DNA from: an uncultured bacterium
Lineage (GTDB): Bacteria; Hinthialibacterota; Hinthialibacteria; OLB16
DNA length: 64,000 bases
Reading direction: 5' to 3'
Assembly (NCBI GenBank): GCA_964481775.1
Contig: CAYZUX010000001.1
Location: 16,840 to 80,839, forward strand
The notes under the pieces are model-generated. The model made no database searches, was not told where the DNA came from, and worked only from the letters and a program-made list of their open reading frames with translations. A program made the translations under genes and the position numbers. Shown here one piece after another: positions 4,411-50,231 of this stretch. Positions within the stretch are counted from its first letter, which is position 1. Every line of letters starts with the position of its first letter.

Positions 4411-5091
4411 ATGAAATCTTATAAACCAATTCAGTTTTTCAGCAGAGGATTTACTTTGATTGAGCTTCTCATCGTGATTGCAATCATCCTGATCCTGATT
4501 GCAATCGCACTTCCGAATTTTCTTGAAGCCCAGATCCGGGCCAAGGTCGCCAGTGCACGAGGAGGACTTCGTTCTATCCAGACGGGATATGAGGCTTATT
4601 ATGCAGACTATAAGCAATATGTTCCATCTCATCGTTTCAGCTTCCTCAACCGCGCAAGTCCTCCGAACATCGACGGATCAGACATGCGGCTCCTGACTAC
4701 ACCGATTCCATATATTAAAAATGCTTTACCACGCGATCCTTTCACGAATAGAGATCCCTATGCCGGACTCTCGTACAATACAGAGTCCTACTTCACAGCC
4801 TATGGCGCCTGGCGTGGTCCTGATGGGAGTACCAAGTATGCGAATGACGGACCAGGTCCTTTTGGCATGGTTCCCGTTCCTTTTGACAGTTGGATGGGAT
4901 GGAGCTCGGGGCCAGACAATCAGGCACAGACGGGTGGTTACCGTCCGGAACAGATCGTGATGAGAAATGAACAATTGGGATTGAGGAACTATTCTCCTTA
5001 CTACAACGGTGTCCGCTACTCTCCAACCAATGGGACTACAAGTCTCGGCGATATTTATGTATTCGGGCCTGGTGCAATCAGAAAGTATTGA
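4411..5091 (+). CDS. GspG-like pseudopilin / prepilin-type N-terminal cleavage-methylation domain protein (paralogue 1 of 3)
   Basis: AAGGAG RBS 7 nt upstream. The class III leader is MKSYKPIQFFSR|GFTLIELLIVIAIILILIAIALPNFLEAQIRAKV, with G-1/F+1/E+5. The C-terminus (SPTNGTTSLGDIYVFGPG) resembles the GspG calcium-binding loop. Confidence 0.85.
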   Translation: MKSYKPIQFFSRGFTLIELLIVIAIILILIAIALPNFLEAQIRAKVASARGGLRSIQTGYEAYYADYKQYVPSHRFSFLNRASPPNIDGSDMRLLTTPIPYIKNALPRDPFTNRDPYAGLSYNTESYFTAYGAWRGPDGSTKYANDGPGPFGMVPVPFDSWMGWSSGPDNQAQTGGYRPEQIVMRNEQLGLRNYSPYYNGVRYSPTNGTTSLGDIYVFGPGAIRKY

Positions 5092-5140
5092 TTGAGTTGT
5101 TTTTTTTGTTGTATCCACCCAAACAAGGAGGAAAGCCACA

Positions 5141-7951
5141 ATGACGGCAGCAAGTGTGTTTTACCGTTGGGTCGTTCCCGCAGTAATCTCATTTCTCACA
5201 GTTGTTTCCCTCCCAGCCTCTGCTTACACCCTTGAAAGAGTTCCGACAGACCATACTACAATCCAGGCTGCTCTCAACTCGGTTTCTCCTGGTGGTACTG
5301 TGCTCATTGAAAACAGCGCGGTTTATGATGAAGAACTCGTGATTCAGACTGCGAATATCCGCATTGTTGCGGCCTCCGGTGAAACCCCCACGATCCGCTA
5401 TGCGGGTGGCCAGAGCTACATCATTTTTGCTGACAAGCCTTGCAGAATCGGTTCCAACACTGGTGGGCGCATCACCATTGACGGAAACCGTGGTGGCCCG
5501 GGGACCCAGACTCATGTTTTTCGAACGGTTCATACCTCCGGGGAAGTGCGGATCGAGAACATTGACGTCACTAATGTACGCAATAACCAGGTGGTCTATC
5601 CAAGTGGCGGAACAGCAGATATCACACTCAACAATGTACATATCGATGGCGGAGGGATCCTTCAATTTGCCATCCGTGTTGATTTTTTGAACAGTGTACT
5701 GACTCTTAACTGTGTCACACTCACAAATTGTGTCCGTGAGTGTATATTTTCCGCCAATGCCGCAACTGGTGTGATCAATATCAACAATTCGGTCCTCTCC
5801 GCGGGATTCGATGTGGTCTTTTTTGATTTCGCGGCCGGTGGATTCACCCTGAATATCAATGATTCCCTCATCAATGAAACAGGTGGAGGTGGAGGTTTCA
5901 GCGCTTTGTATACCCGTGGTCCCATGACCATAAACATGGCGAATTCCGTGATTCGCACGGGTGACATCGATGGTTTTGGTTTCTACCATTTTGATGACCA
6001 GGCGGGAACGGGACCTGTGAATTTTAATGCTGATCATTGCGATTTTGTCGCTGACTTCCCCTTCCGCCTCCTCTCCAGCACGGCGGCCAATAATTACACC
6101 TTAACAAACTGCAACTTTGTTCATGGTCCCTCGGCTGGACGTGGACAGTTGCTTGGTGGAGCCGGTGGCGGCGATGACACCTTTGTTTGGGATTATAACA
6201 ATGTCCAGAGTAACAGCTATGATGCCTTTCCGGTCGGAGCGAATGATATTCACATCGATCCACTTTATACAAACGTCGCAAGCGGGGATTTTACATACTC
6301 TGATGCGACGGTCCTTGTATCGGATAGTGCCGGAGGACCAATCGGCGCCAACGCGGCCTTTCCTGCTAGTATCTGTGCGGAGGATTTTGTGATCCGTGTG
6401 CCCTCTGATTATCCGAGTATCCAGGCTGCAATTGATGCCTCAGTTCCATATGGCGTGGTTAGGATTGAGGACAGTGGAATTTACGAGGAATGTCTCTTGA
6501 TCAGCATACCGGGACTTACCATTGAGGCTGCTCCCTGCCAAAGCCCGGTGATCCGCTACAACGGTTCGCAGAGTTACCTGGTACGGATCACTGAACCATG
6601 CCAGTTCGGATCGAATTCAGGCGGCCGGATTTTGCTTGACTCGAACCTGGGTGGTCCGGGATCTTTATCACGTGTCCTGGATGCTCTGCATACATGGGGA
6701 ATGGTTGTCTTCGAAAATCTGAGTCTGGACAACATGCGCAACACTTACATGTTCAGACCGACTGCATCAACCAGCGATGTTACAATGAACAACGTGGATG
6801 CGGATGGACATGATCAGGGTCTCGGATTGGCAATAGTTCAATTCCCGATCAGGCTCGATACTCACAACAGTACCTTAACTCTCAACTATTGCAACTTCAG
6901 ACGGATGGCTCGCGATGCGATCTATTCAGCTGGATCAGCTTCCGGAGTGATCAACATCCTCAATTCCGTTGTCGAGGCGGGTTTTGATACCGTCTTCTTT
7001 GACTTTGCAGCCGGAGGATTTACAATCAACATTGATAATTCCTACATAAATGAGACAGGCGGAGGCGGAGCGTTTTCATGTTTTTATGTGCGTGGACCAA
7101 ACACCATCAACATGAAGAATTCCGTACTTCGTACCGCGGATTTTGATGGTTTTGGTTTCTATCATTTCGATGACCAGGCAGGGGCTGGACCTGTGATTGC
7201 GAATTTTGACCATTGTGATTTTGTTGCGGATTTCCCATTCAGATTGCTGAGTAGTTTTTCGGCGAATGTTTATACGGTGACTGAGTGCAATTTCGTTCAC
7301 GGCCCAACTGCATCTGGAAGGGGTCAGCTACTCGGTGGCCCGGCTGGAGGAGATGACACCATCATCTGGGACTACAACAATGTTGTCAGTAATTCCTATG
7401 GTTCCTTCCCGGTTGGTGACCACGACATTCATATTGATCCATCCTACACCTCAGTTACTAGTGGAAATTTCACCTATTCAGAACCAACGGTTTTGGTTTC
7501 GGATTCCTCAGGCGGACCCCTTGGAACCAACACGAACTTCGGACCTTCTGTCCATGTACCGACCCTCTCACTGGATTACACACAGGGTACTGGCTTTGAG
7601 GTGGATGTTCTGGCGCCAGATAACACCCCGGCAGCGCAACCGAAAAGTCAACCTGTCCATGTCTTCTCGCAGAATGTCGGTAATGTGCTTATTTCCACGC
7701 TGAATATAAAGGGAACAAATGCAGCGGATTGGAATATCTTGTGTGATCCACCGATTATTGTGAACAAGTCTTGCCCGGTCTCCATTAAGGTTGAGTTTGA
7801 TCCACAGGAAACCCAACCCACCTACGGCCTTATCGCTTCATTGGAAATAGGCACGAACGATCTTGCCAATGCTGTGGTAACAGTTGCCCTGGAAGGAGAT
7901 GCGGTTGGGGGTGTTCCATCGGCGGTTATCGACTGGAGTATCTACGAATAG
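5141..7951 (+). CDS. Large secreted beta-helix (pectin-lyase-fold) protein with an internal tandem duplication and a C-terminal choice-of-anchor-D/ASH-like beta-sandwich domain
   Basis: GGAGG RBS upstream. Signal peptide MTAASVFYRWVVPAVISFLTVVSLPASA. Two ~385-aa repeats (aa ~29-410 and ~413-800) share long identical blocks (GFGFYHFDDQAG.GPV, HCDFVADFPFRLLSS, GRGQLLGG.AGGDDT). The C-terminal ~130 aa follow the pattern F..NVG.....T..I.N.G...L.I........F...C.....P..SC....F.P.......A.L.I..N.....V.L.G. Confidence 0.85.
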   Translation: MTAASVFYRWVVPAVISFLTVVSLPASAYTLERVPTDHTTIQAALNSVSPGGTVLIENSAVYDEELVIQTANIRIVAASGETPTIRYAGGQSYIIFADKPCRIGSNTGGRITIDGNRGGPGTQTHVFRTVHTSGEVRIENIDVTNVRNNQVVYPSGGTADITLNNVHIDGGGILQFAIRVDFLNSVLTLNCVTLTNCVRECIFSANAATGVININNSVLSAGFDVVFFDFAAGGFTLNINDSLINETGGGGGFSALYTRGPMTINMANSVIRTGDIDGFGFYHFDDQAGTGPVNFNADHCDFVADFPFRLLSSTAANNYTLTNCNFVHGPSAGRGQLLGGAGGGDDTFVWDYNNVQSNSYDAFPVGANDIHIDPLYTNVASGDFTYSDATVLVSDSAGGPIGANAAFPASICAEDFVIRVPSDYPSIQAAIDASVPYGVVRIEDSGIYEECLLISIPGLTIEAAPCQSPVIRYNGSQSYLVRITEPCQFGSNSGGRILLDSNLGGPGSLSRVLDALHTWGMVVFENLSLDNMRNTYMFRPTASTSDVTMNNVDADGHDQGLGLAIVQFPIRLDTHNSTLTLNYCNFRRMARDAIYSAGSASGVINILNSVVEAGFDTVFFDFAAGGFTINIDNSYINETGGGGAFSCFYVRGPNTINMKNSVLRTADFDGFGFYHFDDQAGAGPVIANFDHCDFVADFPFRLLSSFSANVYTVTECNFVHGPTASGRGQLLGGPAGGDDTIIWDYNNVVSNSYGSFPVGDHDIHIDPSYTSVTSGNFTYSEPTVLVSDSSGGPLGTNTNFGPSVHVPTLSLDYTQGTGFEVDVLAPDNTPAAQPKSQPVHVFSQNVGNVLISTLNIKGTNAADWNILCDPPIIVNKSCPVSIKVEFDPQETQPTYGLIASLEIGTNDLANAVVTVALEGDAVGGVPSAVIDWSIYE
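5226..7541 (+). repeat. Intragenic tandem duplication, two units of ~1.15 kb (approx 5226..6366 and 6383..7541)
   Basis: The two units translate to ~40-75% identical protein blocks. The nucleotide copies differ at many third-codon positions, so the duplication is old and not an assembly artefact. Confidence 0.8.
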
Positions 7952-8006
7952 GTCTTTCACAAAGAAGGGTCTGGCTTGGTTCTGTGTATCCGGAATACTG
8001 AAGCAT

Positions 8007-8050
8007 CCGCCCGGTTTCACAGTAAGCGTGAAACCGGGCGGTGACTTTTC
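8007..8050 (+). terminator. Rho-independent terminator downstream of the beta-helix gene
   Basis: Perfect 14-bp stem ccgcccggtttcac / gtgaaaccgggcgg with a 7-nt loop, followed by tgacttttc. It starts 56 nt after the stop at 7951. Confidence 0.7.
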
Positions 8051-8421
8051 GTAAACCTAACCTGTTGCAGATTCTCAAAATGCACAGTGGTTCTGAAACG
8101 AAACCAATTCCCATCTGGTACCTGGGAAGGGGTCCAAATTCCTGGTCGCAAGGTTGCGGATAAGGTAAGTGCAGCAATGGTTGAAAACCTTGAACCCATC
8201 GAGCCATCGTTACTCTGTCAGTCGGTTGAAATGGTGTTCTCACTCGAGAATCCGTTGGGTGAAAAAGGGGATCAGGGGATGATCGAGCAATTGGATACCC
8301 ATAGCGAAAGCATGCCAGAGGTGCAGGTTGCATGGGCGAAAGGTATTGAGGAAAAAATTTCTTCGGCAATTTCCACGCTTATGTTTGAAGGCATTAACTG
8401 ATTTTGATTTGAACAGCCATA

Positions 8422-14618: not shown

Positions 14619-15617
14619 ATGAAAGTTGTTGTGACGGATTTTATCGAAACAGACCTGGAGTGGGAAGCAGAACGGTTCCGTCAGGAGAGTATCGAATTCA
14701 AGGCTTTTCAACTGAAGTACGCCTCCGAATTGGAACTGGCGGCGGCTGCAGAGGATGCCGATGTGGTGATCGTCAACATGGCTCCCATCACCAGCAGGGT
14801 CATTGATGGTTGGCAAAAATGCCGTCTGGTGATCCGTCACGGTATCGGATTTGACAATGTGGACATTGAGGCACTTGGGAGTCGTGGTATTCCCCTTGTG
14901 AATATGCCCGATTATTGCACCGAAGAAGTGGCGGAGCAGGCGATTGCCCTGATCCTTGCCTGCGGACGGAAGATTTTTTCAAGCCGGCGAATTCTCGATA
15001 GCTCAGTCAGTCAAGGTTGCTGGAATTTTAACCATATCCATCCAATTCACCGTTTATGTGGACAGACCCTTGGGATCATTGGATGCGGTCGAATTGGAAG
15101 CCGAGTGTACAGGAAACTCTCCTCCTTTGGATATGAATTCGCAATCTGCGATCCTTATCTGAGCTCCAGGCGGAAAGCCCATTTGGGTATAGAAACCGAA
15201 TCACTGGATTCAGTTCTGGCACGATCTGACTTTGTGACACTTCATACGCCTCTGAATCATGAAACTGAACACCTTATCAACGAACAAACTCTCTCACTGA
15301 TGAAACCCACGGCTTACCTGATCAACACAGCTCGTGCAGGCCTGGTGGACCAGAATGCATTGGTTTCAGCTCTAAGGAACAGGAGGATCGCTGGAGCCGG
15401 ACTGGATGTATTTCTTTCAGAACCACCCGATCCGGAAGATCCTCTCCTGAGCATGGATAATGTCGTTCTTACTCCTCATCTGTCCTGGTGCTCGCTTGAG
15501 GCCGAGAGACTGATCAGGGAGAAAATTGTAGCGCAAGTCCTCCGCTTCCGGGATGGAGAACCTCCTGAAAATGTGGTTAATGAAGATTACCTCAAAGCAA
15601 TTGAAGCATCCCTATGA
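14619..15617 (+). CDS. D-isomer-specific 2-hydroxyacid dehydrogenase family protein (NAD-binding)
   Basis: Rossmann motif GIIGCGRIGSRV. The overall architecture matches the PGDH/glyoxylate-reductase family, and the catalytic R..E..H arrangement is present in the C-terminal half. Confidence 0.85.
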   Translation: MKVVVTDFIETDLEWEAERFRQESIEFKAFQLKYASELELAAAAEDADVVIVNMAPITSRVIDGWQKCRLVIRHGIGFDNVDIEALGSRGIPLVNMPDYCTEEVAEQAIALILACGRKIFSSRRILDSSVSQGCWNFNHIHPIHRLCGQTLGIIGCGRIGSRVYRKLSSFGYEFAICDPYLSSRRKAHLGIETESLDSVLARSDFVTLHTPLNHETEHLINEQTLSLMKPTAYLINTARAGLVDQNALVSALRNRRIAGAGLDVFLSEPPDPEDPLLSMDNVVLTPHLSWCSLEAERLIREKIVAQVLRFRDGEPPENVVNEDYLKAIEASL

Positions 15618-16930: not shown

Positions 16931-16946
16931 GGGACAGGGTGACCAG

Positions 16947-22345: not shown

Positions 22346-22369
22346 ATGCAATTCCCATGGAAGGAGAGA

Positions 22370-34987: not shown

Positions 34988-34996
34988 GACCCAATT

Positions 34997-38521: not shown

Positions 38522-39124
38522 TCAGAACTGATAACCTCTCCCTCCAAAGTATTTCAGGTCGCCATTACTGTCCGTTCCATTGGTTGGATTATATGGGATA
38601 GGTCCTTGAGGTGGACTCAAACGGGCTCCACTGAAACGATCATTATCACGGTCAGGTCCCCAGCCACGCATCTGGTAAGGTGCGCGAATCATTCTTCCCT
38701 GTATATCGTAAAACTCGATGAGTGCTCCTTGGGCCAGGTCATCATAAAGGAAGTAATCAAAGGTTCTGAACTCATTGTATGGCGGCTGTTCGCCATTGCC
38801 ATTAAAGATGTCATCGGGGACGATAGACATGTACTTCACTGGTGTAGTCAAAGGGACAAGTCGTTGGAGGTAGCTTTTGAAATTTCCCGGTGTCTTGTTG
38901 ATGACTCCGGAGATGTACTGCTGGTAATCACCGCGATAAGCCTCGAGTGCTGTCGCCACTGACCTCATATCAGCATAATTGCGTGTTATTTTGGCGCGTA
39001 CTTGAGCTGAAAGAAAGTTGGGAAGCGCAATCGCGATCAGTATGAGAATAATGGCGATGACGATCAGCAACTCGATCAGGGTAAAACCACGGCGGGACAA
39101 CACGATTAGAACCTCCTTCTGCAT
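38522..39124 (-). CDS. GspG-like pseudopilin / prepilin-type N-terminal cleavage-methylation domain protein (paralogue 2 of 3)
   Basis: MQKEVLIVLSRR|GFTLIELLIVIAIILILIAIALPNFLSAQVRAKITRNYADMRSVATALEAY with C-terminus NPTNGTDSNGDLKYFGGRG. The track ORF begins 17 codons upstream at 39175. A start at 39124 would give a 12-aa leader like that of paralogue 1. Confidence 0.85.
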   Translation of the reverse strand: MQKEVLIVLSRRGFTLIELLIVIAIILILIAIALPNFLSAQVRAKITRNYADMRSVATALEAYRGDYQQYISGVINKTPGNFKSYLQRLVPLTTPVKYMSIVPDDIFNGNGEQPPYNEFRTFDYFLYDDLAQGALIEFYDIQGRMIRAPYQMRGWGPDRDNDRFSGARLSPPQGPIPYNPTNGTDSNGDLKYFGGRGYQF

Positions 39125-39202: not shown

Positions 39203-40696
39203 TCAATAAAGTGACCAGTTACCAACCGAGGATGCCGGACTTGATTTTTGGTATGCACCGATGTCCGGAGTTGTGCCGCGTGGATTTCCCTCCACATCAG
39301 TGGCGATCCCCAGGTTCAAACCAGCAGCGATTGCGGGTGACCCCTCCTGTAGATGCAGGTCACCAGTTGCCTCGGGGTCGACAAACAATGGGTAGTTTAC
39401 CTGCGCGGTGTTGTATGTGTAATGGGCGCCGCGGGTGACATTGAGAATGCTTGTCGAGAAATCCCTCGCATTAGCCGAGTTGAAGATGGAATAGTCAACA
39501 TCGTAGGAAATCGATGTGGCCGAGCCGTATGTCGGCGAGACCTCCCAGGAGAATCCATTCGGTGTCCGCAAGATTGAGTTCCGGATTGTGGCGGTTGGAT
39601 TGTGGATTGTCAAACGTTGAGCCATCACCGAGTCGTTAATATTATTCACGCTGCAATGGTGCATGGTGATATTTCCACACGGCTCATGGATGTAAACACC
39701 CTCATTCGCGAAAACTGCAATGGCAACGTTCTCAAGAAGAATATTGGAGTTGTAGCCGAGGAACAGGCCAGTCCCCGCCCGATAGGCAGTCAGATCGTTG
39801 ATCATCTCACAACGGCGAATAATGAGGTTGGCTGGGCCTGTATTCGAATCCGGATAGGCATTGGTGAAAATACCATGTCCCGTCCAGTCGTTGAAGGTGC
39901 AATCCTCAAAGAGTACCGTGCTGTTGGGTGCCCAGTTGGGGGAATCAAAACGCAGAGCGATGCCGTATTCACCACCAAAGTGTGTGAAGGTGCAGTGCTG
40001 AACGGTCAGGTTGCCCATGCGATTCTGCGCGGCGCTGGGAGTTCCAGTTTCATTAGCCATGAGACGGATCGGATGACCGATATTCGAGAAGTTGCAATTC
40101 TGAATGGTCACGCCCGCATATCCGAATGTGCTGGTTACGCCACCTATCTCCACACCTGATGAAGCGTTTCCATTACCGAAATCACGCGGTGTTGCATCAT
40201 GCAGGTTACAGTTCGTGAGGGTGGGTTTGCCACCGTTATAGACGTCGATGATCCTCCCGGCGCCAAAAAGGTCAAGGTGATCCATAACAACCGTGGCTCC
40301 CTCGTAGACGGAGACACAGGCACGGTATTCGATGCCGTTATTGGCACTCATATCCACGGAGAGATTTTTAAGAGTGATATTCGAGGATTGATTGGCAATG
40401 TAGATGCCCTGATTCACCGCATTGGAGGCGGAAATCTTGACCACCGCGGGGGTTCCCGCGGCTGGTCCTTGCAGAGTCAGATTGCTTCTGCCAATGATCC
40501 CAACCCAATTGTCGTAATCACCAGCGGCGATATCGATTGTATCACCGTTGTTCGCGGCAGCTACCGCATCTGAAATAAGTGCAAAGTCATAGGTGGGTGG
40601 CCCGGCTGGCCCCACCGTCACTGTCGCTGCGAATCCGGGAGCAGCTCCAAACGCCAACACCAATGCCCCTATCCAAACACCTCTTCGACCGATCAT
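39203..40696 (-). CDS. Secreted right-handed parallel beta-helix protein
   Basis: Signal peptide MIGRRGVWIGALVLAFGAAPGFA. Coils include NITLKNLSV, TLTNCNLHD, TIQNCNFSN, TVQHCTFTH, LFEDCTFND, IIRRCEMIN and TMHHCSVNN. The C-terminus has GNPRGTTPDIGAYQ, typical of beta-helix proteins. Confidence 0.8.
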   Translation of the reverse strand: MIGRRGVWIGALVLAFGAAPGFAATVTVGPAGPPTYDFALISDAVAAANNGDTIDIAAGDYDNWVGIIGRSNLTLQGPAAGTPAVVKISASNAVNQGIYIANQSSNITLKNLSVDMSANNGIEYRACVSVYEGATVVMDHLDLFGAGRIIDVYNGGKPTLTNCNLHDATPRDFGNGNASSGVEIGGVTSTFGYAGVTIQNCNFSNIGHPIRLMANETGTPSAAQNRMGNLTVQHCTFTHFGGEYGIALRFDSPNWAPNSTVLFEDCTFNDWTGHGIFTNAYPDSNTGPANLIIRRCEMINDLTAYRAGTGLFLGYNSNILLENVAIAVFANEGVYIHEPCGNITMHHCSVNNINDSVMAQRLTIHNPTATIRNSILRTPNGFSWEVSPTYGSATSISYDVDYSIFNSANARDFSTSILNVTRGAHYTYNTAQVNYPLFVDPEATGDLHLQEGSPAIAAGLNLGIATDVEGNPRGTTPDIGAYQKSSPASSVGNWSLY

Positions 40697-41260
40697 TATT
40701 CGTACTCCTTAGCCAAGGGTTTTCTCCCGTCGTGCGGGATACGGTCCACCTCTGATGGACAACTCTACCAGGCACCTCGCATGCAAAACGTGAACGTTAA
40801 TGTTCTGGAATTATGTTTATCGTTCCTGTTTTGGATGTCAAGAAGAAATCCCGAAAATCTTCGAAATCAACCTTGAAAAGTTTCATAACCATCGTAAAAT
40901 GAATAGGATAATGATTAGTCCCAACTGGATGAGGGCTTTCTTTCAAAAGGTGGATACTCATGGGAATCGACCTACTGAGGCTTGGATAAAACCTTGGAAA
41001 AAGTCAAAAAGAGAATTAACGTTTAGCACATTCTCATAGGTTTTTTCCATATTACCCATCTGAGAGAGGCTGTTTCCAATAATCCGTGGAGAAAGGTATT
41101 TCGTTGATATCAACAATCAGGAGGGATTTTAGGAGGATTATTTGACTCGATGGTTTTTCTCCCTGTGTTGACAACGTTAATCTCCCTTAAGTAATGTATT
41201 CCCCACACACATCAGGAAGAGCTGTTCCGAGGACCACGGGAAACGTTTTTTTGGAAAGTC

Positions 41261-42301
41261 ATGCGTAGGACCCTTAAAGATATTGCCAATGAAGTGAATC
41301 TCTCGGTAAACACCGTTTCTCGAGCCTTACGGGGTTTTCCGGGAGTCAGTGAGGAAAACCGGCGTCGTATCCAGCAACTGGCAAAGACATATAACTATGT
41401 TCCTTCCAGGGATGCCCGGAACCTCGTTCTTCAGAGTTCTCAATCCATTGGAGTTCTTGTTCCTGACTTGAGGATCCCTTACCTGGGAGAGATCACCTCT
41501 TTTCTTCAGCAAGCCCTCCAGGAAAAAGGCTACTTCAGTTACGTTCTGACCACATCCGACAACACCGAGCAGTCAAGTAAATGCGCCGAATCCCTCGTGG
41601 AGCGACGGGTGGATGGATTGATTTCCATGACCGTTCTGACTCCCCAAACCATCGAAATGCTTCGATATCACCGAATCCCCCTGTTGTATCTGGTGGTTTA
41701 TGGGGGAGAGCTCCCATTGCACTTTGTTGGGTATGATGATGAAGTTGGGGGATGCCTCGCCGCCAAGCACCTGATCGATATTGGGCACAAGAGGATCGCC
41801 TATTTCACAGGGAACTGGGAGACTGATTCGTTTCGTACACCACGCTGCCAGGGATTCCTGAGAGCCATCAGGGAATCGAATGGGGCAGTCCAGCCTCTGC
41901 TGTTTCCCCATGTCTATGCGGACACTGCCAAAGCGGGATACGCCTGCTCACGCGAGATCGTAGAACGGATTCGTAGCAAAGAGGTTCAGGCTGTCTTTTG
42001 TGTCTGTGATGCAGTGGCACTCGGACTCATGCACAGGCTCTATGAAGAAAAGATCCGGGTGCCTGAAGATGTTTCGATCATCGGCTATGACAACATCGAG
42101 ATGGCCGAGTTTTCCACCCCACCTCTAACCACAATCTGGCAAGATGCCGAGCGGATAGCACGTCTTGGAACTATGTTGATTCTCCAGATGCTCGGTTCAG
42201 AAGAAGACTGGGACAAAGTGCGTCAGCAGGTTTTCCTTGAACCCACGCTGATTCTGCGCAAATCCACCCAATACACATCGTCTTCATCCCCAACAGTATA
42301 A
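41261..42301 (+). CDS. LacI-family transcriptional regulator
   Basis: N-terminal HTH (LKDIANEVNLSVNTVSRALRG) plus a periplasmic-binding-fold effector domain. It is divergent from the beta-helix/pseudopilin operon and convergent with the ABC permease operon. Confidence 0.85.
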   Translation: MRRTLKDIANEVNLSVNTVSRALRGFPGVSEENRRRIQQLAKTYNYVPSRDARNLVLQSSQSIGVLVPDLRIPYLGEITSFLQQALQEKGYFSYVLTTSDNTEQSSKCAESLVERRVDGLISMTVLTPQTIEMLRYHRIPLLYLVVYGGELPLHFVGYDDEVGGCLAAKHLIDIGHKRIAYFTGNWETDSFRTPRCQGFLRAIRESNGAVQPLLFPHVYADTAKAGYACSREIVERIRSKEVQAVFCVCDAVALGLMHRLYEEKIRVPEDVSIIGYDNIEMAEFSTPPLTTIWQDAERIARLGTMLILQMLGSEEDWDKVRQQVFLEPTLILRKSTQYTSSSSPTV

Positions 42302-42415
42302 TCCCCCTGTTCGCCAACTTGACAGGTTTTTCCTTCTTGGCTCATCAACCGATAACCTGCACCCTGTTCGGCCTTGATATAGCAGTGCTTCACCGCCTTT
42401 TCTTCGAGTCCGTTT

Positions 42416-42520: not shown

Positions 42521-43423
42521 CTATCCCTTGATCGCTCCAGACGCAAGGCCGCTGATAAATTCTTTTTGAAGAAGGAAGAAAAGAAAGATAACAGGCAGCA
42601 CGGATAAAAGGGTTCCTGCCATGAGCGTGCCATATTCCTGTGAATAAACGCCCACCATCTGGTTGAGACCGATGGGGAGAGTGAAACGATCCTGAGAGTG
42701 AAGAATGATCTGGGGCCATAGAAAACTGTTCCATGCTCCCATGAACGAAATCAGTGAGAAAGCCCCGATCATGGGACGTGAGACAGGGAGTGCGATGTCC
42801 CAGTAAAGGCGGAATTCACTACAGCCATCAATACGTCCGGCGAACAACAGGTCATCAGGTATGTTCATCATGGATTGACGGAACAGGAACATTCCGAACA
42901 CACTCACACCACCTGGCACAATGAGCCCCATGTAGGTGTCCACAAGACCCATGTTGAAAATCAGCTCATACAAAGGTGCCATGAGGACCTGCGAGGGTAT
43001 CATCATGGTGCCCAGCATCAGCCCCATCACGAAACGTTTTCCCTTGAAATCATATTTGGCGAGCGCAAATCCACCAAGTGATGAAAAGAAGAGTTGGATG
43101 GTCACAGTAGTTCCTGCAACGAAGCAGCTATTCATGAAAAAGCGTAGGAAACGAACATCCTCAAAGAGCTGCCTGAAATTATGGAAGTCGATTTTTGGAA
43201 TTAAGGTGAGAAGCCAGATCCCGATGGAAGTGATCCCTCCCCCTGGCCCCATTATTTTCTGGATAGCTTCATCATCCATGAGGGGGGCAAAGAACACATA
43301 GTGAAAAAGATCGTCAGGTCCCTTGAAACTGGCCGCAACCAGCCACAAGAGGGGAGTCAGCATGATGACAGCGCTGAAGATCAGGGCGGAATAGAGCAGG
43401 ACCAGAAAAAAGGCCTTCTTCAT
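42521..43423 (-). CDS. Carbohydrate ABC transporter permease (MalG-type)
   Basis: EAA-loop DDLLFAGRIDGCSEFRLYWDIALPVSRP with 6 TM segments. Confidence 0.85.
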   Translation of the reverse strand: MKKAFFLVLLYSALIFSAVIMLTPLLWLVAASFKGPDDLFHYVFFAPLMDDEAIQKIMGPGGGITSIGIWLLTLIPKIDFHNFRQLFEDVRFLRFFMNSCFVAGTTVTIQLFFSSLGGFALAKYDFKGKRFVMGLMLGTMMIPSQVLMAPLYELIFNMGLVDTYMGLIVPGGVSVFGMFLFRQSMMNIPDDLLFAGRIDGCSEFRLYWDIALPVSRPMIGAFSLISFMGAWNSFLWPQIILHSQDRFTLPIGLNQMVGVYSQEYGTLMAGTLLSVLPVIFLFFLLQKEFISGLASGAIKG

Positions 43424-43424
43424 G

Positions 43425-44330
43425 CTAATCCTGCCTTTTCCACATGCCAGTCAGGTGGATTTGAAGCATGGAAATCAGAAATACGAGGATAGCGAGAGTC
43501 CATCCGATGGTTGAGGCAAAACCGAGGTCTCCGTTTACGAAACCATTCATATAAAGATACATCACGATGGTCAGACCGGCTCCATCAGGACCTGCGCCGT
43601 TGCCAAGCATGACAAAGGGTAATTCAAAAAGCTGAAAGGATCCAATCGTGGCCAGGATCATGACAAATACGGTCACCTCGCGAATGCCTGGCAAGGTGAT
43701 ATGCAGAAAACGCTGAAATGGATTGGCCCCATCAACGTAGGCCGCATCGTAGAGATCGAGATCGACATTCTGTAGCGCAGCCAGGAAATAAATCATGTTG
43801 AATCCGACATACATCCAAAGTGAAGTCAGGATCAGGGCTGGCATGACAAGGGAGGAGTTTCCCAGCCATTTGGTATCAAGATCGAGCCCAATCAGAAAAT
43901 GCAATGCCCGGTTCAACAGGCCGAAGTGAGGGACAAAAATAACAGAAAAAAGGACTCCCACGAAAACTTGTCCAACCAGGTGGGGAGAAAAAAAAGCAAA
44001 CCGGAAGAAATGACGTCCACGAACTCCACCCTGGTTCAGAAGCAGGGCAAGTCCCAGGCTCATGGGAAGTTGAACCAAAACGGAAAAGAAGGTAAAGATC
44101 GAAGTGTTGAAGACAGCCTTGTGGAAGTCAGGATCGGAAAGAAGGAGACGGAAATTTTCAAGACCCACAAAAACATGCGACTTGGGACCATCCGTGATAT
44201 AAAAAGCCAGGATGAGACTTTTTACAAGAGGATAAAGTCCAAAAGTCAAAAAGAGAATCAGGAAAGGGGAAATGAAAAGATAAGGGGCATACTTCTTCCG
44301 GCTGGCATTGGAGATCAATTCAATCTTCAT
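43425..44330 (-). CDS. Carbohydrate ABC transporter permease (MalF-type)
   Basis: EAA-loop YDAAYVDGANPFQRFLHITLP; polytopic. Confidence 0.85.
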   Translation of the reverse strand: MKIELISNASRKKYAPYLFISPFLILFLTFGLYPLVKSLILAFYITDGPKSHVFVGLENFRLLLSDPDFHKAVFNTSIFTFFSVLVQLPMSLGLALLLNQGGVRGRHFFRFAFFSPHLVGQVFVGVLFSVIFVPHFGLLNRALHFLIGLDLDTKWLGNSSLVMPALILTSLWMYVGFNMIYFLAALQNVDLDLYDAAYVDGANPFQRFLHITLPGIREVTVFVMILATIGSFQLFELPFVMLGNGAGPDGAGLTIVMYLYMNGFVNGDLGFASTIGWTLAILVFLISMLQIHLTGMWKRQD

Positions 44331-44335
44331 TGTGG

Positions 44336-45718
44336 TTAAAATCGATTCCGAGCCATGAAAAATCGTACTGAATCGGCAGCCTCTCTGAGAGTCCTTTCGG
44401 CAAAACCTTCAAAACCCGTGGGTCCATATGAACGATAATAGGCGGCGCAGGAAGACACAGCCTCACCCAGTTTCTGTTTTGCCGTGCTGACATACGGACT
44501 TGTATACTGGGGAGGGACTTCCTCGGCAAGGTTGACATACATGCGTCCAACCGGCTGACCAGACCAATAAGGATCAGGACGGTCAAACGAGGAATGGGTC
44601 CAGGCATCTTTCAATGGAGGTATGATGTTGGTCTCCTGGAATCGCTGCGCAAGTTCATCCGGCTGAAGGTATAACTGCTCGGCGGCCTGCAAGGCCAGAT
44701 CCCTGTGGGGAGATTTCTTGCTGATCGCAAGCATGGTTCCCCCTTGGGTGCTGGTTCTCCTTCCACCTGGAAACGCAACGGGCAGGGGACGGAGAGCCAT
44801 TTTTCCGGCTACCCGGGGGACATATATCTCCGTGGTTTTGCTTCTCCAGTCCGGGCAGAGAAATGTGAGAAAGTAACCTTTTTCCAATGCCTGTGTAAAC
44901 ACGCGTCCCGCGGCCAGGTCGGTCCCGATACGGTCTGGTCCAGCCACCAATGGAATATACCATTTCAGTGTCTCCAAGCCGATCTCATTGTCGAAGATGA
45001 GTTCGCCATCCTCGTTGAAATAACCTCCTCCGCGTTGAAAGAGGAACATCTCCAACTGCGATGAATTGCTGTCAGAAAGCTCAATGGCATACCTCTGATC
45101 AGGAACTGTCAGTTGCCTTCCCAGCGCAATGAATTCCTCCCAGGTGTTAATTTCTGTCAGGTCCACTCCCATCTCTTCAAATAAGTCTTTGCGATAGGCC
45201 AGCATGACAGGGCAAACAGCCTTGGGGAGACCATAAATGCACCCCCGGTTGCTGTATGGTGCCAGACGGGAATGGAGAATCCGCTGGTAGTAACCGCTTG
45301 ATATGAGCCATGGTTTCAGATCGAGGAATCCAACCTCCTCGAGTGGTCCTCTGAAGAAAGTTCCTGCGGAGCTGATCTCCACCTCGGCAAGGTCAGGAAC
45401 ATCCAGGTCTGCCCAGAAGGCCGCTCGGAGGCGGTGGGTCACTGCATCCGGGTGAACAAGCTGCAGGTCAACGCTTACCCCGGGATGGGCAGACTCAAAT
45501 GCTGAGATCACCTTTTTATACGAGTTCAGGTGGGTCAGGGCGAAACTCCAGAGATGCAGGGTTGCCAACTTGTCACCAGGAGGGTTAAACAAGAGCCACC
45601 CGCCAGAGATCATTGCCAGAAACAGCAGGACAGTAGGTCCTTTCCCAAAGGGGAAGCTGTTCACCAGGTATTCGGCTCCATTACCATGTGATGCACAATA
45701 CGCAATTCGACTGCACAT
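44336..45718 (-). CDS. ABC transporter extracellular solute-binding protein (family 1, sugar)
   Basis: N-terminal membrane anchor/signal (VLLFLAMISGGWLLF) and SBP_bac_1-like length and composition. It is first in an SBP-permease-permease set. Confidence 0.75.
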   Translation of the reverse strand: MCSRIAYCASHGNGAEYLVNSFPFGKGPTVLLFLAMISGGWLLFNPPGDKLATLHLWSFALTHLNSYKKVISAFESAHPGVSVDLQLVHPDAVTHRLRAAFWADLDVPDLAEVEISSAGTFFRGPLEEVGFLDLKPWLISSGYYQRILHSRLAPYSNRGCIYGLPKAVCPVMLAYRKDLFEEMGVDLTEINTWEEFIALGRQLTVPDQRYAIELSDSNSSQLEMFLFQRGGGYFNEDGELIFDNEIGLETLKWYIPLVAGPDRIGTDLAAGRVFTQALEKGYFLTFLCPDWRSKTTEIYVPRVAGKMALRPLPVAFPGGRRTSTQGGTMLAISKKSPHRDLALQAAEQLYLQPDELAQRFQETNIIPPLKDAWTHSSFDRPDPYWSGQPVGRMYVNLAEEVPPQYTSPYVSTAKQKLGEAVSSCAAYYRSYGPTGFEGFAERTLREAADSVRFFMARNRF

Positions 45719-45788
45719 CCTATCAGGAATGAGTCAGGAAAGGAATTCTCCAGTATGTGGGCCTTCACGATTGGATTTCTCAGTTCGA

Positions 45789-47768
45789 TCAATACAACGG
45801 CCAGTTCATCATGCCTGACTGCCTTGGAGCTGAAAACTTGACGTTGTCGATAACAAGACCGAAACCCTCCCCCGGATGAGACTCGGTTGGAACCCAAACA
45901 ATATTGGAAACTTCACTGAGGTTCACTCCATCAGAGCCTGTAGTAAATGATAATAAGGGGATGTGGATAAGTTTTGGTTGATCGATGTCTTCAAGCAGGA
46001 CATGAGGTTGAAGATAACCTTTGAATCCAGCGGCGACATGACTCCGGTCTTCCAGGCGAACGCTATACGAAGATCCTTCAGTTTTGAGAATGTTAAATTC
46101 CAGAGCTTCATATCCATTGAGATCCATTGTAACAGTCATGGAAGGACCGAAACGAGTTACAACCCCCGCGAAAGAATATCCTCCTTCGGCAGGGGGGATG
46201 GAACCGGTGGCTGAAAAAGCAGAATTGCTGTTACCCAATCCCGGATGGACGATTGACTTTGAAAGAGCACCACAGGGATTGCAGATTCCATTCCCGTCAA
46301 AGACCTCCCAATTTCCACCTATGTGGTTGCTAAAATCGTTATCCTCCAGGTCGTCAATAAGAATATCATTGATGATAATGGGTGTCGGCGTTGGTGTCGG
46401 TTGAATTTCCGACTTCTTTGTAAATTGAATATTGTCTACGGTTATGCCAAAAGGAGACCCTGAAGAATCTGTCTGTAATGTCCAGACAATCTTTTGGATT
46501 GCTCTGAGATCAACTGGATTGGGTCCATTAGCGAATAATGAGAGGGGAAAGGAAATTCGTTCTGTCTCGCCTGGATGAGTCGTGATAGGTATATTTGTTG
46601 AATTATAGGTTTGATGCTTGTCTTCAAGACGGACCTGGTAGGGACCACCCATGCTTACCGAAAAATCAAATTCAAGCAGGTGGAAGCGGGAAGCATCGAA
46701 CTGATTGTTTTGAATATCCTTGGAGAGTTCTGTGACGAGTCCTCCATAATTGAAGGATGGAGCAAATCCCGGAAGGGCCCCTGATGCCTGAAAAGCATGG
46801 GAACTGTTCCCAAGGCCGGGGACCTGCAATTGACCAATTATGGTTGAGGAAGGTCCTGTATCGTTTCCGGAAAAAGTGGTCCAGATCCCTTGAAGATTAT
46901 TTATATTATTCCCATCTTCAAAATGATCCACAACCAACGAATTGGGTGGAGATGTGGGAGGAAAGTGGAAAAAGTCTGTCACCAGGAACTCATCACCAAA
47001 GCCAGATTGGGGGGAATTGCCATCAATAAGCCAGAAATTGAATCGGAAATTTTCCTGACCGGCTGGAGGAACATCCGGGCCGTTGTTGGCCCAGTTATAG
47101 ATGAGATCTTCTGGCGGGGCGGTGCCAGGAAAATGGTGACCATGGTAGGTCGAAAACTCGACACGACCGGTCGTCCAGTTCATTATCAAAGTGAGCTCCT
47201 GGCTTGCTGATGATAGTTCGACTGCATATCGAACAAGATTTCCAGGAGTATCATAGGGTTGAACAACGAACTGTGCGTTAGTGGGATCCAGCGGATTCCC
47301 CCACCTGGAGAATTCAAAGTCCAACTCCCGATAATGATATTGGGGAGCTCCTCCATCCCATGTGAATAGTCCGGCAACCATATTGGGATCAATCCTATCC
47401 AATCGGCTGCGTGTTTGTATGACGTAGGTTCCATATCCAAGGTTTTCCTGCAGAACACATTCCGTGCAATACCATTTTCCTGACTGTTGGCTGATGGTTA
47501 GATGGAGTCCGTCACTGTCTGTCCAGATATCCGAGGCTGATCCGGAAAAATAATTTGGTCCCGGCCCCACACGAGACTCACTCTCTTTAACAAGCCATGT
47601 CCGTCCGGCGAATTCGAGGAATCTGGCTCCATAAACAGGCCCGGAAAAAAGTCCAATCAATTCCCATCCCACAATCATAATAGGATAGAGTCTTGATCGA
47701 TTCAAACTCAATATCAAATCCAGGTGCATTGTGAAAAAAGGTGCCCGTGCCCCGGAGAGGTGAGGCAC
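45789..47768 (-). CDS. Secreted GH16-like beta-jelly-roll glycanase (ExDxE motif) followed by two CBM11/CIA30-like beta-sandwich modules
   Basis: The N-terminal domain has YGTYVIQTRSRLDRIDPNMVAGLFTWDGG...YRELDFEFSRWGNP, where ELDFE matches the GH16/GH7-type E-x-D-x-E. Two C-terminal modules (VDHFEDGNNINNLQGIWTTF..ITVDNIQF and IDDLEDNDFSNHIGGNWEVF..LVIDNVKF) are separated by a PTPTPTP linker. Confidence 0.6.
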   Translation of the reverse strand: MPHLSGARAPFFTMHLDLILSLNRSRLYPIMIVGWELIGLFSGPVYGARFLEFAGRTWLVKESESRVGPGPNYFSGSASDIWTDSDGLHLTISQQSGKWYCTECVLQENLGYGTYVIQTRSRLDRIDPNMVAGLFTWDGGAPQYHYRELDFEFSRWGNPLDPTNAQFVVQPYDTPGNLVRYAVELSSASQELTLIMNWTTGRVEFSTYHGHHFPGTAPPEDLIYNWANNGPDVPPAGQENFRFNFWLIDGNSPQSGFGDEFLVTDFFHFPPTSPPNSLVVDHFEDGNNINNLQGIWTTFSGNDTGPSSTIIGQLQVPGLGNSSHAFQASGALPGFAPSFNYGGLVTELSKDIQNNQFDASRFHLLEFDFSVSMGGPYQVRLEDKHQTYNSTNIPITTHPGETERISFPLSLFANGPNPVDLRAIQKIVWTLQTDSSGSPFGITVDNIQFTKKSEIQPTPTPTPIIINDILIDDLEDNDFSNHIGGNWEVFDGNGICNPCGALSKSIVHPGLGNSNSAFSATGSIPPAEGGYSFAGVVTRFGPSMTVTMDLNGYEALEFNILKTEGSSYSVRLEDRSHVAAGFKGYLQPHVLLEDIDQPKLIHIPLLSFTTGSDGVNLSEVSNIVWVPTESHPGEGFGLVIDNVKFSAPRQSGMMNWPLY

Positions 47769-47838
47769 GGGCGATAAATCGTATCATCCCAACTGGTGGA
47801 GAGGTTGAATGGATGAATCCCGCTTTTGAGCATACAAC

Positions 47839-49596
47839 TTATTCATGAAGGTACCATTGCTCAACTGCGCTAGCGGGTTCTGTGCCAATAAAGAGCACGT
47901 TGTCAATGGTTAGCACGAATGGATCATCCCCCATATCGGTTTGGGGGACCCAAACGATTGTGGCGACTTTGGTTAGGTCAAGAGCTTCAGGACCAGTCGT
48001 GAATGAACTCAGGGGTATCTTTACTGTTGTGGTGGTATTTGGAGGAACATCAAAGTTGACATGGGGTTGCAGATACCCAAGGTACCCGGCAGCAATGTGA
48101 GGTGCATCTTCAATTCTCACGCGATAGGGACCTCCCTGGGAAACCTTGATGTCAAACTGGAGGTAGAGATGATTCGCGATATTGATGGAGGAGGTGGGTG
48201 TGGGTCCTACACGGACATTGACTCCACCGTATACGTAACCATCCAAGGGAGGCATTTGGCCCGTAACACAGAATGAGTATGCCCCAGAGAGCGGGACGCA
48301 ATCCGTGGCAATATGGATGGTTCCACAGGGGGATGGGCATGAAGCATTTCCGCTGAAGGTTTCCCAAAGTCCACCCAGTTCACAAATAAAGTTTCCATCC
48401 TCCAAGTCGTCGACAAGAACATTTTTGTCCGCTGGTAACGGCGGGATAGGAGTTGGAGTGGGTATAGGCGTCCCCTGGCCGGTAAAATAAACATTATCAA
48501 TGATCAAGCCGAAGGGTGAACTGTCACCCGGTGTCTGTAAATCCCAGATAATCTGACGGGCATCTCTCAGGTCAATCAGGTTTCCGCCATCTGGAGTACC
48601 GCCAGTGGTCAGATCCGCGAGGGGTATAATAACATGGGTTTCCACATTTGGGGGAAGATTCAGATTGATGAACGCTGAATTGTATGTGTTCAACGAATCC
48701 TCTACTCGGACTTTATAGGGGCCCCCATCGGTGACCAATGCATTGAACTCAAGGTTGATCGCCCCCGAAATATCCAAGGTCCCGAGTGGGCAACCTACCC
48801 CGCCAAAATTGTAACCCCCTTCGAGTGGAGGAAGTGTCCCGGATACCGCAACTCCCACTTCCGTAGAACCGAGTCCTGGTGTGGTAGGAGCAATGTTCAA
48901 GTGACCATAGGAGGGATTTGAAACACCATTGCCTTCGAAAACAAACCAGACCCCTGAAAGTTCATTTGTAAGATCCGCATCCTCGGCATCCTCCACCAAA
49001 ATCGGATCGATAAATTTTACGTTGTCGATTGTGATACCGAAGGGGACGCTGTCACCCGATGCTTGAAGGTCCCAGACAATGTTGGTGGCTGCTGAAAAGT
49101 TGATAGGATTTCCACCATCTGGTGCCGTAGCGAGTTTAGACAGGGGGATGATCACATGAGTGGTCAGTCCCTCAGTTAAACTCAGGTTCACAAATGCCGA
49201 ATTGAAAGTTTGAACTCCATCTTCCACCCTTACCTTGTAGGGTCCGCCGGCGGTGACCAGGATGTCGAATTCCAGGATGGTTGTGCCAGAAATATCTCGT
49301 GTTCCAAGGGGACACTGAACACCACCGTAGTTGAAACCACCTACAACGGGTGGTAATTGTCCGCTGACAACAATCGCGGTGCTGCTTCCTCCAAGTCCCG
49401 CCCCTGTCGTGAGGATCAAGTTGCCACCAGTGGATCCACTTCCATTTCCTTCAAAAACCGACCATGTTCCCCCAAGTTCATTCGATAAATTGGCATCCTC
49501 AACCGTATCCACAACGATATCTTGCGACAGGCAAGGTGTTGCCAGCAAGAGCAGCAGCAAAAAGAATGTGAAACCGAATTGTAACTGACTTTTCAT
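47839..49596 (-). CDS. Secreted protein made of four tandem CBM11/CIA30-like carbohydrate-binding-type modules
   Basis: Signal peptide MKSQLQFGFTFFLLLLLLATPCLS. Four ~140-aa repeats each begin (V/I/L)(V/I)(D/E)(T/D/A/L)(V/A/L)ED.. and end ..(T/I)IDNV.F. The last two are joined by a TPIPTPTPIPP linker. The same module type occurs in the neighbouring GH16-like gene. Confidence 0.7.
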   Translation of the reverse strand: MKSQLQFGFTFFLLLLLLATPCLSQDIVVDTVEDANLSNELGGTWSVFEGNGSGSTGGNLILTTGAGLGGSSTAIVVSGQLPPVVGGFNYGGVQCPLGTRDISGTTILEFDILVTAGGPYKVRVEDGVQTFNSAFVNLSLTEGLTTHVIIPLSKLATAPDGGNPINFSAATNIVWDLQASGDSVPFGITIDNVKFIDPILVEDAEDADLTNELSGVWFVFEGNGVSNPSYGHLNIAPTTPGLGSTEVGVAVSGTLPPLEGGYNFGGVGCPLGTLDISGAINLEFNALVTDGGPYKVRVEDSLNTYNSAFINLNLPPNVETHVIIPLADLTTGGTPDGGNLIDLRDARQIIWDLQTPGDSSPFGLIIDNVYFTGQGTPIPTPTPIPPLPADKNVLVDDLEDGNFICELGGLWETFSGNASCPSPCGTIHIATDCVPLSGAYSFCVTGQMPPLDGYVYGGVNVRVGPTPTSSINIANHLYLQFDIKVSQGGPYRVRIEDAPHIAAGYLGYLQPHVNFDVPPNTTTTVKIPLSSFTTGPEALDLTKVATIVWVPQTDMGDDPFVLTIDNVLFIGTEPASAVEQWYLHE

Positions 49597-49656
49597 GATT
49601 AATCCTCCATTCGACCATTTTACTATCCATCTGCTCATTTCCATGAGTCATCTCAG

Positions 49657-50231
49657 CTAAAATGGACCCACGCGAAGTATGTCACCATTGCTCTGAGTGC
49701 CATTGGTGGGGGAGTAAAAGATCTCACGTATATTCTTTACACGGTAAGGATCCATGACGATATCAATATCTCTGTCGGGACCTTGAGATGCGATGTACCA
49801 TTCCGATTTTCTCCCCAGGATGGTGGTCAGGATCTGCTTGAAGAAAACTTCACCCTCCCATGTATTCTTCAATGGAACAATAAAATCAAAGACCCTGTAT
49901 TGCTTGGGATTTGTGTTCCAATCACTCAGGATGACATCATCCCCAAACTGGTCGATGGGAAATCCCGCGATATATTTCACGGGTGTTGTCAAATGAACCC
50001 ATCTTTGCTCGATATAGCGGGTATTTGCAGCGGCTGGATATTTCTTGAAGTCAAGATGATATGCCTCAAGGGCAATACCATACGAGCGAATTTCCGCCGT
50101 CACTTTCGTAACCTTCGCCCGAAGCTGGGCTTCGAGGAAGTTGGGTAATGCAATAGCGATAAGAATCAGAATGATTGCAATGACTATCAGCAGTTCAATT
50201 AAGGTGAATCCCTGTCTTGATATTGTCCGCA
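49657..50231 (-). CDS. GspG-like pseudopilin / prepilin-type N-terminal cleavage-methylation domain protein (paralogue 3 of 3)
   Basis: MRTISRQ|GFTLIELLIVIAIILILIAIALPNFLEAQLRAKVTKVTAEIRSYGIALEAY with C-terminus SPTNGTQSNGDILRVGPF. AAAGAGGA lies 8 nt upstream of the ATG at 50231; the track ORF starts 12 codons earlier at 50268. Confidence 0.85.

Follow-up and report, generated by a model that had tools for sequence, protein, structure and literature searches.

In several poorly cultured phyla, prepilin-type paralogue families rank with the largest gene families that still lack an explanation. In Planctomycetota, Verrucomicrobiota and Lentisphaerota, the DUF1559/H-X9-DG and Verru_Chthon cassette families of this type are massively expanded and dispersed over the genome. 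In the type IVb pilus secretion of TcpF and CofJ, a short flexible terminal peptide docks on a minor pilin, and the filament machine delivers the protein. In the verrucomicrobium Verruconatronum alginivorum, a pulG-like pseudopilin (pgaptmp_000050) lies within a cluster of genes that depolymerise and import alginate, and this cluster is over-expressed on the polymer; the genome has at least 67 homologues of the pseudopilin, another pseudopilin is also over-expressed on alginate, and the authors propose that a type II secretion system (T2SS) encoded elsewhere exports the alginate lyases (PMC13274419). In the archaeal bindosome (the Bas system of Sulfolobus), pilin-type signal peptides and filament-type assembly are linked to sugar uptake by ATP-binding cassette (ABC) transporters at the cell surface (PMC3047682). 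Literature searches gave nothing specific on Sumerlaeota pilins, Kiritimatiella pseudopilins, DUF1559 prepilins, or pseudopilins in polysaccharide utilisation beyond the Verruconatronum report. Here, three pilin-like genes, called A, B and C, were analysed in a stretch of 64,000 nucleotides from an uncultured bacterium (contig CAYZUX010000001.1, positions 16,840 to 80,839), hereafter the window. The original prediction had read them as a dedicated pilin-like component of polysaccharide capture or uptake loci and had taken this association to be new, a point on which the Verruconatronum report has priority. The closer association of the pilins was found to be with exported neighbours that end in a common short C-terminal tail, and not with the importer.

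The window encodes exactly three class III signal peptides, which belong to the following genes:

4411 to 5091, plus strand: pilin-like gene A, 226 aa, carrying a signal peptide of class III, a GspG-like globular part and the longest insertion of the three.
38522 to 39124, minus strand: pilin-like gene B, 200 aa.
49657 to 50232, minus strand: pilin-like gene C, 191 aa; the public call of 198 aa (P0001) starts from an alternative ATG at 50253.

The start of C had been placed at 50231, which is out of frame; the ATG lies at 50232. The signal peptide and N-terminal helix that had been described as common to the three genes are recognised in all of them by PF07963 (N_methyl; 28.7-31.4 bits against a cut-off of 21.2, with 29.9 for A) and by TIGR02532 (31.1-33.1 against 16.3, with 31.1 for A). 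The common N-terminal motif is R/Q-GFTLIELLIVIAIILILIAIALPNFL; set out around the cleavage site, it reads R/Q-G and then FTLIELLIVIAIILILIAIALP, with glycine in position -1, phenylalanine at +1, glutamate at +5, and a hydrophobic helix some 20 residues long. Overall identity among the three proteins is 40-46%, and the other motifs they have in common (LTTP, P.D.F, GPD and Y.PTNGT.S.GD) correspond to a family signature LTTPxxY, PxDxF, GPD, YxPTNGTxSxGD. The C-terminal block had been given as (S/N)PTNGT.SNGD; PTNGT.S.GD is indeed common, and copy A has SLGD instead of SNGD. Within PTNGTxSxGD the N, G, S and G are invariant and the D nearly so, and the block would occupy a position equivalent to the calcium loop of GspG.

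Across the 26 identical N-terminal residues of A, B and C, only 7-9 of the 26 third codon positions agree. Since so few of them agree within identical residues, the copies are old paralogues and strong purifying selection acts on the helix, in agreement with the original prediction. Recent gene conversion as the source of the identical helix is ruled out by the saturated synonymous sites. In every genome sampled there is one helix variant, common to all paralogues of that genome.

The best fold matches of the pilins are EpsG and PulG, and the fold is that of GspG, with insertions that include a helix (residues 125-139) and a stretch of low confidence (160-180). Nonetheless, the GspG profile TIGR01710 reaches 45.9 (A), 46.1 and 52.6 bits against a cut-off of 88.85, and PF08334 reaches 16.0 for A and 16.9 for C against 21, with no match for B. 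The three pilins are GspG-like in fold, but they are not GspG orthologues. Membership of the DUF1559/H-X9-DG family was rejected, given that none of its models in Pfam and NCBIfam matches the pilins at E<=1. Matches to the Verru_Chthon cassette proteins C and D are confined to the N-terminus and lie far below cut-off. No lectin domain or carbohydrate-binding module (CBM) was detected in A, B or C by the Pfam and NCBIfam scans.

Reading the C-termini of all genes in the window revealed a tail of about 12 residues, approximately P-S-S-V-D-N-W-x-L-Y-E (consensus P-[SA]-[SA]-x-V-[DE]-[ND]-W-x-[LI]-[YF]-[EQ]), at the end of seven Sec-exported proteins:

2936 to 4327, plus strand: exported beta-helix-like protein of locus A, 463 aa as intact on a Joint Genome Institute (JGI) contig; ends ...ITNWNMY, tail encoded at 4292-4327.
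5141 to 7951, plus strand: exported 936-aa protein of locus A with two similar repeats; ends ...VIDWSIYE, tail encoded at 7919-7951.
22346 to 23764, plus strand: exported DUF3748/PD40 protein, without a pilin neighbour; ends ...RVDNWSLFE, tail encoded at 23729-23764.
36655 to 38442, minus strand: exported protein of about 595 aa in locus B, whose open reading frame (ORF) extends to 38547; ends ...IVDTWKTYQ, tail encoded at 36655-36690.
39203 to 40696, minus strand: exported 497-aa beta-helix protein of locus B, with a choice-of-anchor Q domain at residues 444-483; ends ...SSVGNWSLY, tail encoded at 39203-39241.
45789 to 47678, minus strand: exported 629-aa protein of locus C, for which the public call starts at 47678; ends ...MMNWPLY, tail encoded at 45789-45824.
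47839 to 49644, minus strand: exported 601-aa protein of locus C with three CBM11/CBM30-like modules; ends ...AVEQWYLHE, tail encoded at 47839-47877.

Defined loosely, the tail is thus present in 7 of about 46 window genes. A strict W-x-x-[Y/F]-[E/Q] C-terminus is found in six of the seven, where 0.08 would be expected by chance in 46 genes (P ~3e-10). Tailed proteins occupy five of the six gene slots that flank the pilins (hypergeometric p=1.3e-4), and they adjoin the pilins non-randomly. Among ORFs no shorter than 150 aa in the fetched loci, 11 of 521 end in the strict motif when the locus has this pilin family, versus 2 of 1940 when it has other pilins (Fisher p=1.8e-6; p=0.004 with the window excluded).

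Tailed proteins stand by the pilins in two orthologues of the window loci, one of them with a 591-aa protein (L098) and the other on both sides of the pilin (L102). The arrangement is also seen in other lineages; it recurs in L088, where a tailed 559-aa protein is followed by the pilin and then by a LacI gene, in L016, where a tailed 299-aa protein lies between two pilins, and in L096, where a tailed protein of 2238 aa is one gene away from the pilin. In L090, L101 and L008 the tailed proteins are 4-9 kb from the pilin, and several pilin loci have none. The ending itself is recognisable in orthologues, being ...SSVNNWSLY in the orthologue of the 497-aa protein (P0263) and ...EVDSWRNYQ in the L102 orthologue of the protein of about 595 aa.

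The class of choice-of-anchor domains was defined by a location immediately ahead of alternative C-terminal anchors. The tail of the 497-aa protein comes directly after its choice-of-anchor Q domain (NF041518, which scores 34.9 bits, the cut-off being 25). A homologue search with this protein returned one true relative only, and the tail was mapped on the DUF3748 protein family. In DUF3748 orthologues of 58-79% identity, the chain continues in five ways after the last strand, QIF[VI]..: by an immediate stop, by a PEP-CTERM signal (at least 12 cases), by a sorting domain of the type IX secretion system (T9SS; P0289 and P0294), by an extra domain of 145 residues, or by this tail (P0268-P0270). 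Tail variants reading ...DWSQLK occur in the orthologues P0273, P0281 and P0282. Because the tail follows the choice-of-anchor Q domain in one family, and PEP-CTERM or T9SS signals stand in its place in orthologues of another, two independent observations put it at the predicted position of sorting signals, and it is a candidate new C-terminal sorting tag. The tail has no match to any Pfam or NCBIfam model, it is disordered in the AlphaFold2 model of the last CBM module, and the modules that adjoin it are CBM-like. A type I secretion signal was ruled out, given that all tailed proteins have N-terminal Sec signal peptides. PEP-CTERM was also ruled out: the tail ends 8-9 residues after P-x-S and has no hydrophobic stretch, and the true PEP-CTERM orthologues are clearly unlike it.

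A second short ending, ...(M/K/R/S/E/I/V/Y)-(F/Y)-W-(K/Q/R/E)-(K/Q/E/N), is found repeatedly in a different branch of the DUF3748 family (P0305, P0309, P0316, P0318, P0320, P0324, P0328, P0344 and P0365), and is possibly a second lineage-specific terminal motif.

The remaining features of the three loci are as follows:

8007 to 8041, plus strand: terminator-like hairpin of 14 pairs, 10 of them G-C, 3' of the gene for the 936-aa protein.
31880 to 34987, minus strand: sugar ABC importer of locus B, with a lipoprotein-type binding protein at 33632-34987 (SBP_bac_1, 5e-31) and permeases at 32748-33635 and 31880-32779.
41261 to 42301, plus strand: LacI-family regulator, divergent from locus B.
42521 to 45718, minus strand: sugar ABC importer of locus C, with a binding protein at 44336-45718 and two permeases.
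47743 to 47772, minus strand: terminator- or attenuator-like hairpin of 11 pairs (9 G-C) with a T-run after it, located between the gene for the 601-aa protein and the next gene.
50272 to 53547, minus strand: relative of GH149-like beta-1,3-glucan phosphorylases, first gene of locus C (E 1.7e-18, below cut-off).
53845 to 54972, plus strand: LacI-family regulator, divergent from locus C, heading a pilin-less importer and GH16/CBM6 locus at 54935-59727.

The genes of the pilin units are spaced by 12-84 nucleotides, which bears out the tight spacing within carbohydrate operons that had been noted. Strong terminator-like hairpins were found only after the gene 3' of pilin A and the gene 3' of pilin C, and their positions suggest transcription units of the form protein, pilin, exported protein. 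In locus A, the hairpin at 8007-8041 ends a unit in which pilin A stands between two beta-helix genes. The repeats of the downstream 936-aa protein are beta-helix-like by sequence and have no significant Pfam match. The upstream gene carries, relative to JGI contig Ga0247854_1002245 (L001), a deletion of 1 nucleotide near 3623 that splits it into two overlapping ORFs, and the cause is an assembly error or else a strain-level frameshift. An importer of one binding protein and two permeases had been assigned to each locus; it is present in B and C, and locus A has no ABC importer within the window.

The pilins had also been described as lying between secreted beta-helix or CBM proteins. The GH149-like protein upstream of pilin C, which has no recognisable signal peptide, and the downstream neighbour of pilin B do not fit this description. 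The latter, of about 595 aa, is exported and unclassified; it is paralogous to the 543-aa and 812-aa proteins of the locus B operon, and a weak GH127 match was obtained for a paralogue in the same operon. In locus C, the 601-aa protein with its three modules is predicted to be a non-catalytic glycan binder, and the 629-aa protein combines an N-terminal part that is very weakly beta-glucanase-like (E ~0.02-0.04) with two CBM11-like modules. Loci B and C thus carry LacI, ABC importer, CBM, and beta-glucanase-like or GH127-like genes. The pilin loci do not belong to a gsp operon, their neighbours being beta-helix, CBM, phosphorylase-like and ABC importer genes, and the three copies make up a family with members in predicted polysaccharide utilisation operons.

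Two further observations concern the regulators. At 40784-40807, about 90 nucleotides upstream of the beta-helix gene that comes first in locus B and beside the divergent LacI gene, there is an imperfect palindrome centred on AACGTT; it is a possible LacI operator, but a weak one that is not relied on here. Across the divergent region of locus C, the GH149-like gene (50272-53820, minus strand) is back to back with the LacI-regulated importer and GH16/CBM6 locus (54935-59727, plus strand), a pair that is kept in L097. Locus C and 54935-59727 look like a two-operon regulon for beta-glucan or laminarin.

The layout of locus C is conserved around a pilin C orthologue of 76% identity (P0002), in the same form in the SRR8490538 and SRR24881069 contigs: LacI, binding protein, two permeases and GH16/CBM6 are read in one direction, and phosphorylase-like protein, pilin and tailed CBM protein in the other. 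The GH149-like orthologue in L097 has 1073 aa. For pilin B, the orthologue in GCA_964581845.1 (L102) is 94% identical and keeps its operon position, in which a LacI gene is divergent from a series of beta-helix, pilin, 603-aa protein, GH127-like protein, importer and LamG proteins. The beta-helix neighbour is 85% identical in that genome, and is therefore less conserved than the pilin. The glycan link of the pilins holds for the window and two related genomes of the same gene order, and not generally.

As the original prediction had stated, no assembly machinery lies beside the pilins: of the 33 window proteins that were scanned, none matched a Pfam family of secretion ATPases, platform proteins, secretins or prepilin peptidases. 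The scan covered one of the three binding proteins and none of the six ABC permeases or the two LacI regulators; the exact copies of the proteins outside it, on public contigs, have precomputed matches to BPD_transp_1, LacI and SBP_bac_1. Type IV pilus genes are encoded by Sumerlaeota metagenome-assembled genomes (MAGs) in general. The scanned proteins gave no match to a TonB-dependent receptor or to SusD, and import is by ABC systems. The sugar-binding proteins of the window have a lipobox or a transmembrane anchor, class III signal peptides being confined to the three small pilins.

The reading that we tentatively prefer, and hold as a possibility to be taken seriously, is that the pilins are locus-specific GspG-like filament subunits that are served by a machine encoded elsewhere and that export and/or display their tailed glycan-binding or glycan-cleaving neighbours ahead of ABC import. 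A, B and C would be type IV filament subunits, either pilins or pseudopilins with a GspG-like fold, cleaved after the glycine by a prepilin peptidase and assembled by an ATPase and platform machine from another part of the genome. The invariant N-terminal helix would mean that all paralogues use one machine, and probably that they join one filament. Each copy would be transcribed with its sugar-regulated operon and work with the flanking Sec-exported tailed proteins (the beta-helix proteins, the triple CBM11-like binder, and the beta-glucanase-like protein with CBMs), serving as the subunit that moves them across the outer layers, holds them at the surface, or both. The tailed proteins may then bind and cut the polymer at the surface, with the importer encoded downstream taking up the fragments.

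Filament assembly, contact between tail and pilin, and the choice between secretion and display are what we infer in this scheme, and it is the adjacency of the genes that suggests recognition of the tail by the pilin. Uptake, 'piston' and display roles are not told apart by a sequence analysis of this kind. A more specific version, in which pilins with PTNGTxSxGD and the 12-residue tail form an undescribed sorting system and the tail docks on the locus-specific pilin for export or tethering, is considered unlikely.

Several observations weigh against the export or display of tailed neighbours by the pilins. The tailed protein at 22346 to 23764 has no adjoining pilin. The independent loci are few, and a tailed protein lies less than 1 kb from the pilin in 3 of 7 (p=0.026). 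Many members of the pilin family are distant from glycan genes and from tailed proteins, and assembly genes were not found within the 64-kb window in the scan of 33 proteins. Furthermore, the tails are too similar between loci to suggest pilin-specific pairing, and because they are so alike, a different common receptor for them is equally possible.

The same absence of pilin-specific tails would be expected if the pilins had no locus-specific role. They would then be interchangeable pilin or pseudopilin isoforms for a single T2SS or type IV pilus, their copies would have entered the operons by duplication and hitch-hiking, and the tail would belong to an unrelated sorting pathway. The family is indeed huge and scattered. 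When 1.84 billion representatives were scanned in full with HMMER, 3,696 clusters at 50% identity had E<=1e-10, and 52,391 had E<=1e-3, N-terminal-only matches among the latter. A word-indexed search gave more than 6,000 matches, from MAGs labelled Sumerlaeota or Omnitrophota and named 'type II secretion system protein G' or 'prepilin-type N-terminal cleavage/methylation domain-containing protein'. When genome contigs were scanned with a profile of the three paralogues, matches were mostly N-terminal only, with about 6 full-length relative loci among the matches listed, and a narrower alignment gave 4 loci in metagenomes. The family is multi-copy, with tandem triplets in GCA_002428325.1 and GCA_964420455.1 and at least 4 copies in GCA_020632575.1.

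Homologues in the context survey, which covered about 20 loci, were found between ETF and GidA, beside alanine dehydrogenase, as a tandem triplet beside a kinase, between an ECF sigma factor and an ABC-2 exporter, beside DUF1501 and a ceramidase-like gene, adjoining LacI, and upstream of GH26 and GH94. Because these contexts are so mixed, with housekeeping and tandem settings among them, the pilin family, taken overall, is not one dedicated to glycan loci, contrary to what had been proposed. The 67 paralogues of Verruconatronum, which arose by duplication and transfer, fit interchangeable isoforms as well. What such isoforms do not account for is that the operon position is kept in relatives, with a pilin more conserved than its neighbour, that five of the six flanking slots hold tailed proteins, and that there are independent cases of adjacency or near-adjacency in L088, L016 and L096. 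The absence of a locus-specific role is judged rather unlikely.

One subgroup of the pilins (P0037, P0058, P0093 and P0099) is longer at the C-terminus by about 50 residues, the last of which read ...LVVNGE.YLHRLPPKL.

The pilins might also act on the polymer themselves, by forming substrate-induced adhesive pili or short fibres that bind it, independently of the tailed neighbours. Polysaccharides are bound by type IV pilins in Caldicellulosiruptor, Ruminococcus albus and Fibrobacter, the pili of this kind in cellulolytic Firmicutes set a precedent for such a fibre, and a link to dextran uptake has been made for fibres of planctomycetes. The variable globular parts (40-46% identity) on an invariant assembly helix would suit such a fibre, as would the placement of the pilin genes in predicted glycan operons, and a glycan-binding complex of minor pilins has been published for Streptococcus sanguinis (PMC9934059). 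However, the pilins lack a detectable lectin domain or CBM of their own while dedicated CBM proteins are encoded directly beside them, many of their homologues lie outside glycan loci, and a fibre leaves the non-random adjacency to tailed proteins unexplained, which makes this explanation doubtful. A non-polymerising scaffold, in which the helix anchors a periplasmic or surface domain that organises the importer or its binding protein, would have a precedent in the archaeal bindosome, which ties class III signal peptides to sugar ABC uptake (PMC3047682), and would agree with the membrane anchoring of the binding proteins of loci B and C themselves (by lipobox or transmembrane segment), but it is quite improbable, given that locus A lacks an importer and the importer locus at 54935-59727 lacks a pilin, that the binding proteins have no class III signal peptides, and that terminator-like hairpins part the pilin units from the downstream genes in loci A and C.

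Elsewhere in the window, an exported 662-aa protein (23991-25979, minus strand) fuses SUMF1, a formylglycine-generating-enzyme domain, to a BNR/sialidase-like beta-propeller, which is an unusual combination. A 920-aa protein (26421-29183, plus strand) joins a beta-lactamase-like N-terminal part to DUF5060 and to a weak, below-cut-off apiosidase-like catalytic domain. The genes for a 2-hydroxyacid dehydrogenase, a class III aminotransferase and an M20 peptidase follow one another at 14619-18194, and their order is the same at 2426-6029 of L008. The MAG of L008 (long-read, with a contig of 2.56 Mb, CAXXIH010000008.1) also has a member of the pilin family and a DUF3748 orthologue ending ...DNWSQLK.

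The pairing of pilin and tail touches a second puzzle besides that of the prepilin-type families, namely how glycan-binding proteins and enzymes are retained at the surface without SusC/SusD or cellulosomes. If the pilins are partners of a short C-terminal sorting tail, this would be one testable answer to both. The tail would then serve as a simple marker from which surface proteomes could be predicted in metagenomes, and the system would be a Sumerlaeota-like counterpart of the lipoprotein-anchored surface glycan-binding proteins of Bacteroidota. If they are not, the locus is one more case of a reported but unexplained association.

Compared with GspG, PulG and EpsG (PDB 4lw9, 5wda), the window pilins have the same class III signal peptide (G-1, F+1, E+5) and long N-terminal helix, and their conserved Gly/Asp-rich C-terminal loop would sit where GspG binds calcium. 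In contrast, they are 50-90 residues longer through insertions and score below the TIGR01710 and PF08334 cut-offs, and three diverged copies of them lie within 64 kb, each as part of a catabolic operon instead of a gsp operon. The DUF1559/H-X9-DG and Verru_Chthon families have the same N-terminal cleavage/methylation domain, whereas the window pilins have a signature of their own. The bindosome is a functional analogue, but in it the class III signal peptide is on the sugar-binding proteins, and here it is on a separate small GspG-like protein.

With regard to the tail, its place at the extreme C-terminus of Sec-exported proteins is shared with the PEP-CTERM/exosortase, T9SS and choice-of-anchor systems, but PEP-CTERM and T9SS signals differ from its roughly 12 residues, which include no transmembrane helix, basic cluster or 80-residue beta-sandwich. 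The docking of TcpF and CofJ illustrates a way in which such a tail might act. In these two, the docking peptide is N-terminal, the pilin is a minor pilin located at the tip, and the genes lie inside the pilus operon, whereas here the link is one of adjacency only. The Verruconatronum cluster is alike in having a pseudopilin inside a polysaccharide cluster and a multi-copy family; this likeness is drawn from gene context and not from a comparison of pilin sequences. It differs in belonging to another phylum, in using a Na+ symporter and TonB systems where the window has ABC importers, and in that no C-terminal tail was reported on the neighbours. The pseudopilin in a glycan locus is a further instance of that reported, unexplained association, in another lineage and with another pilin subfamily, while the C-terminal tail may be new.

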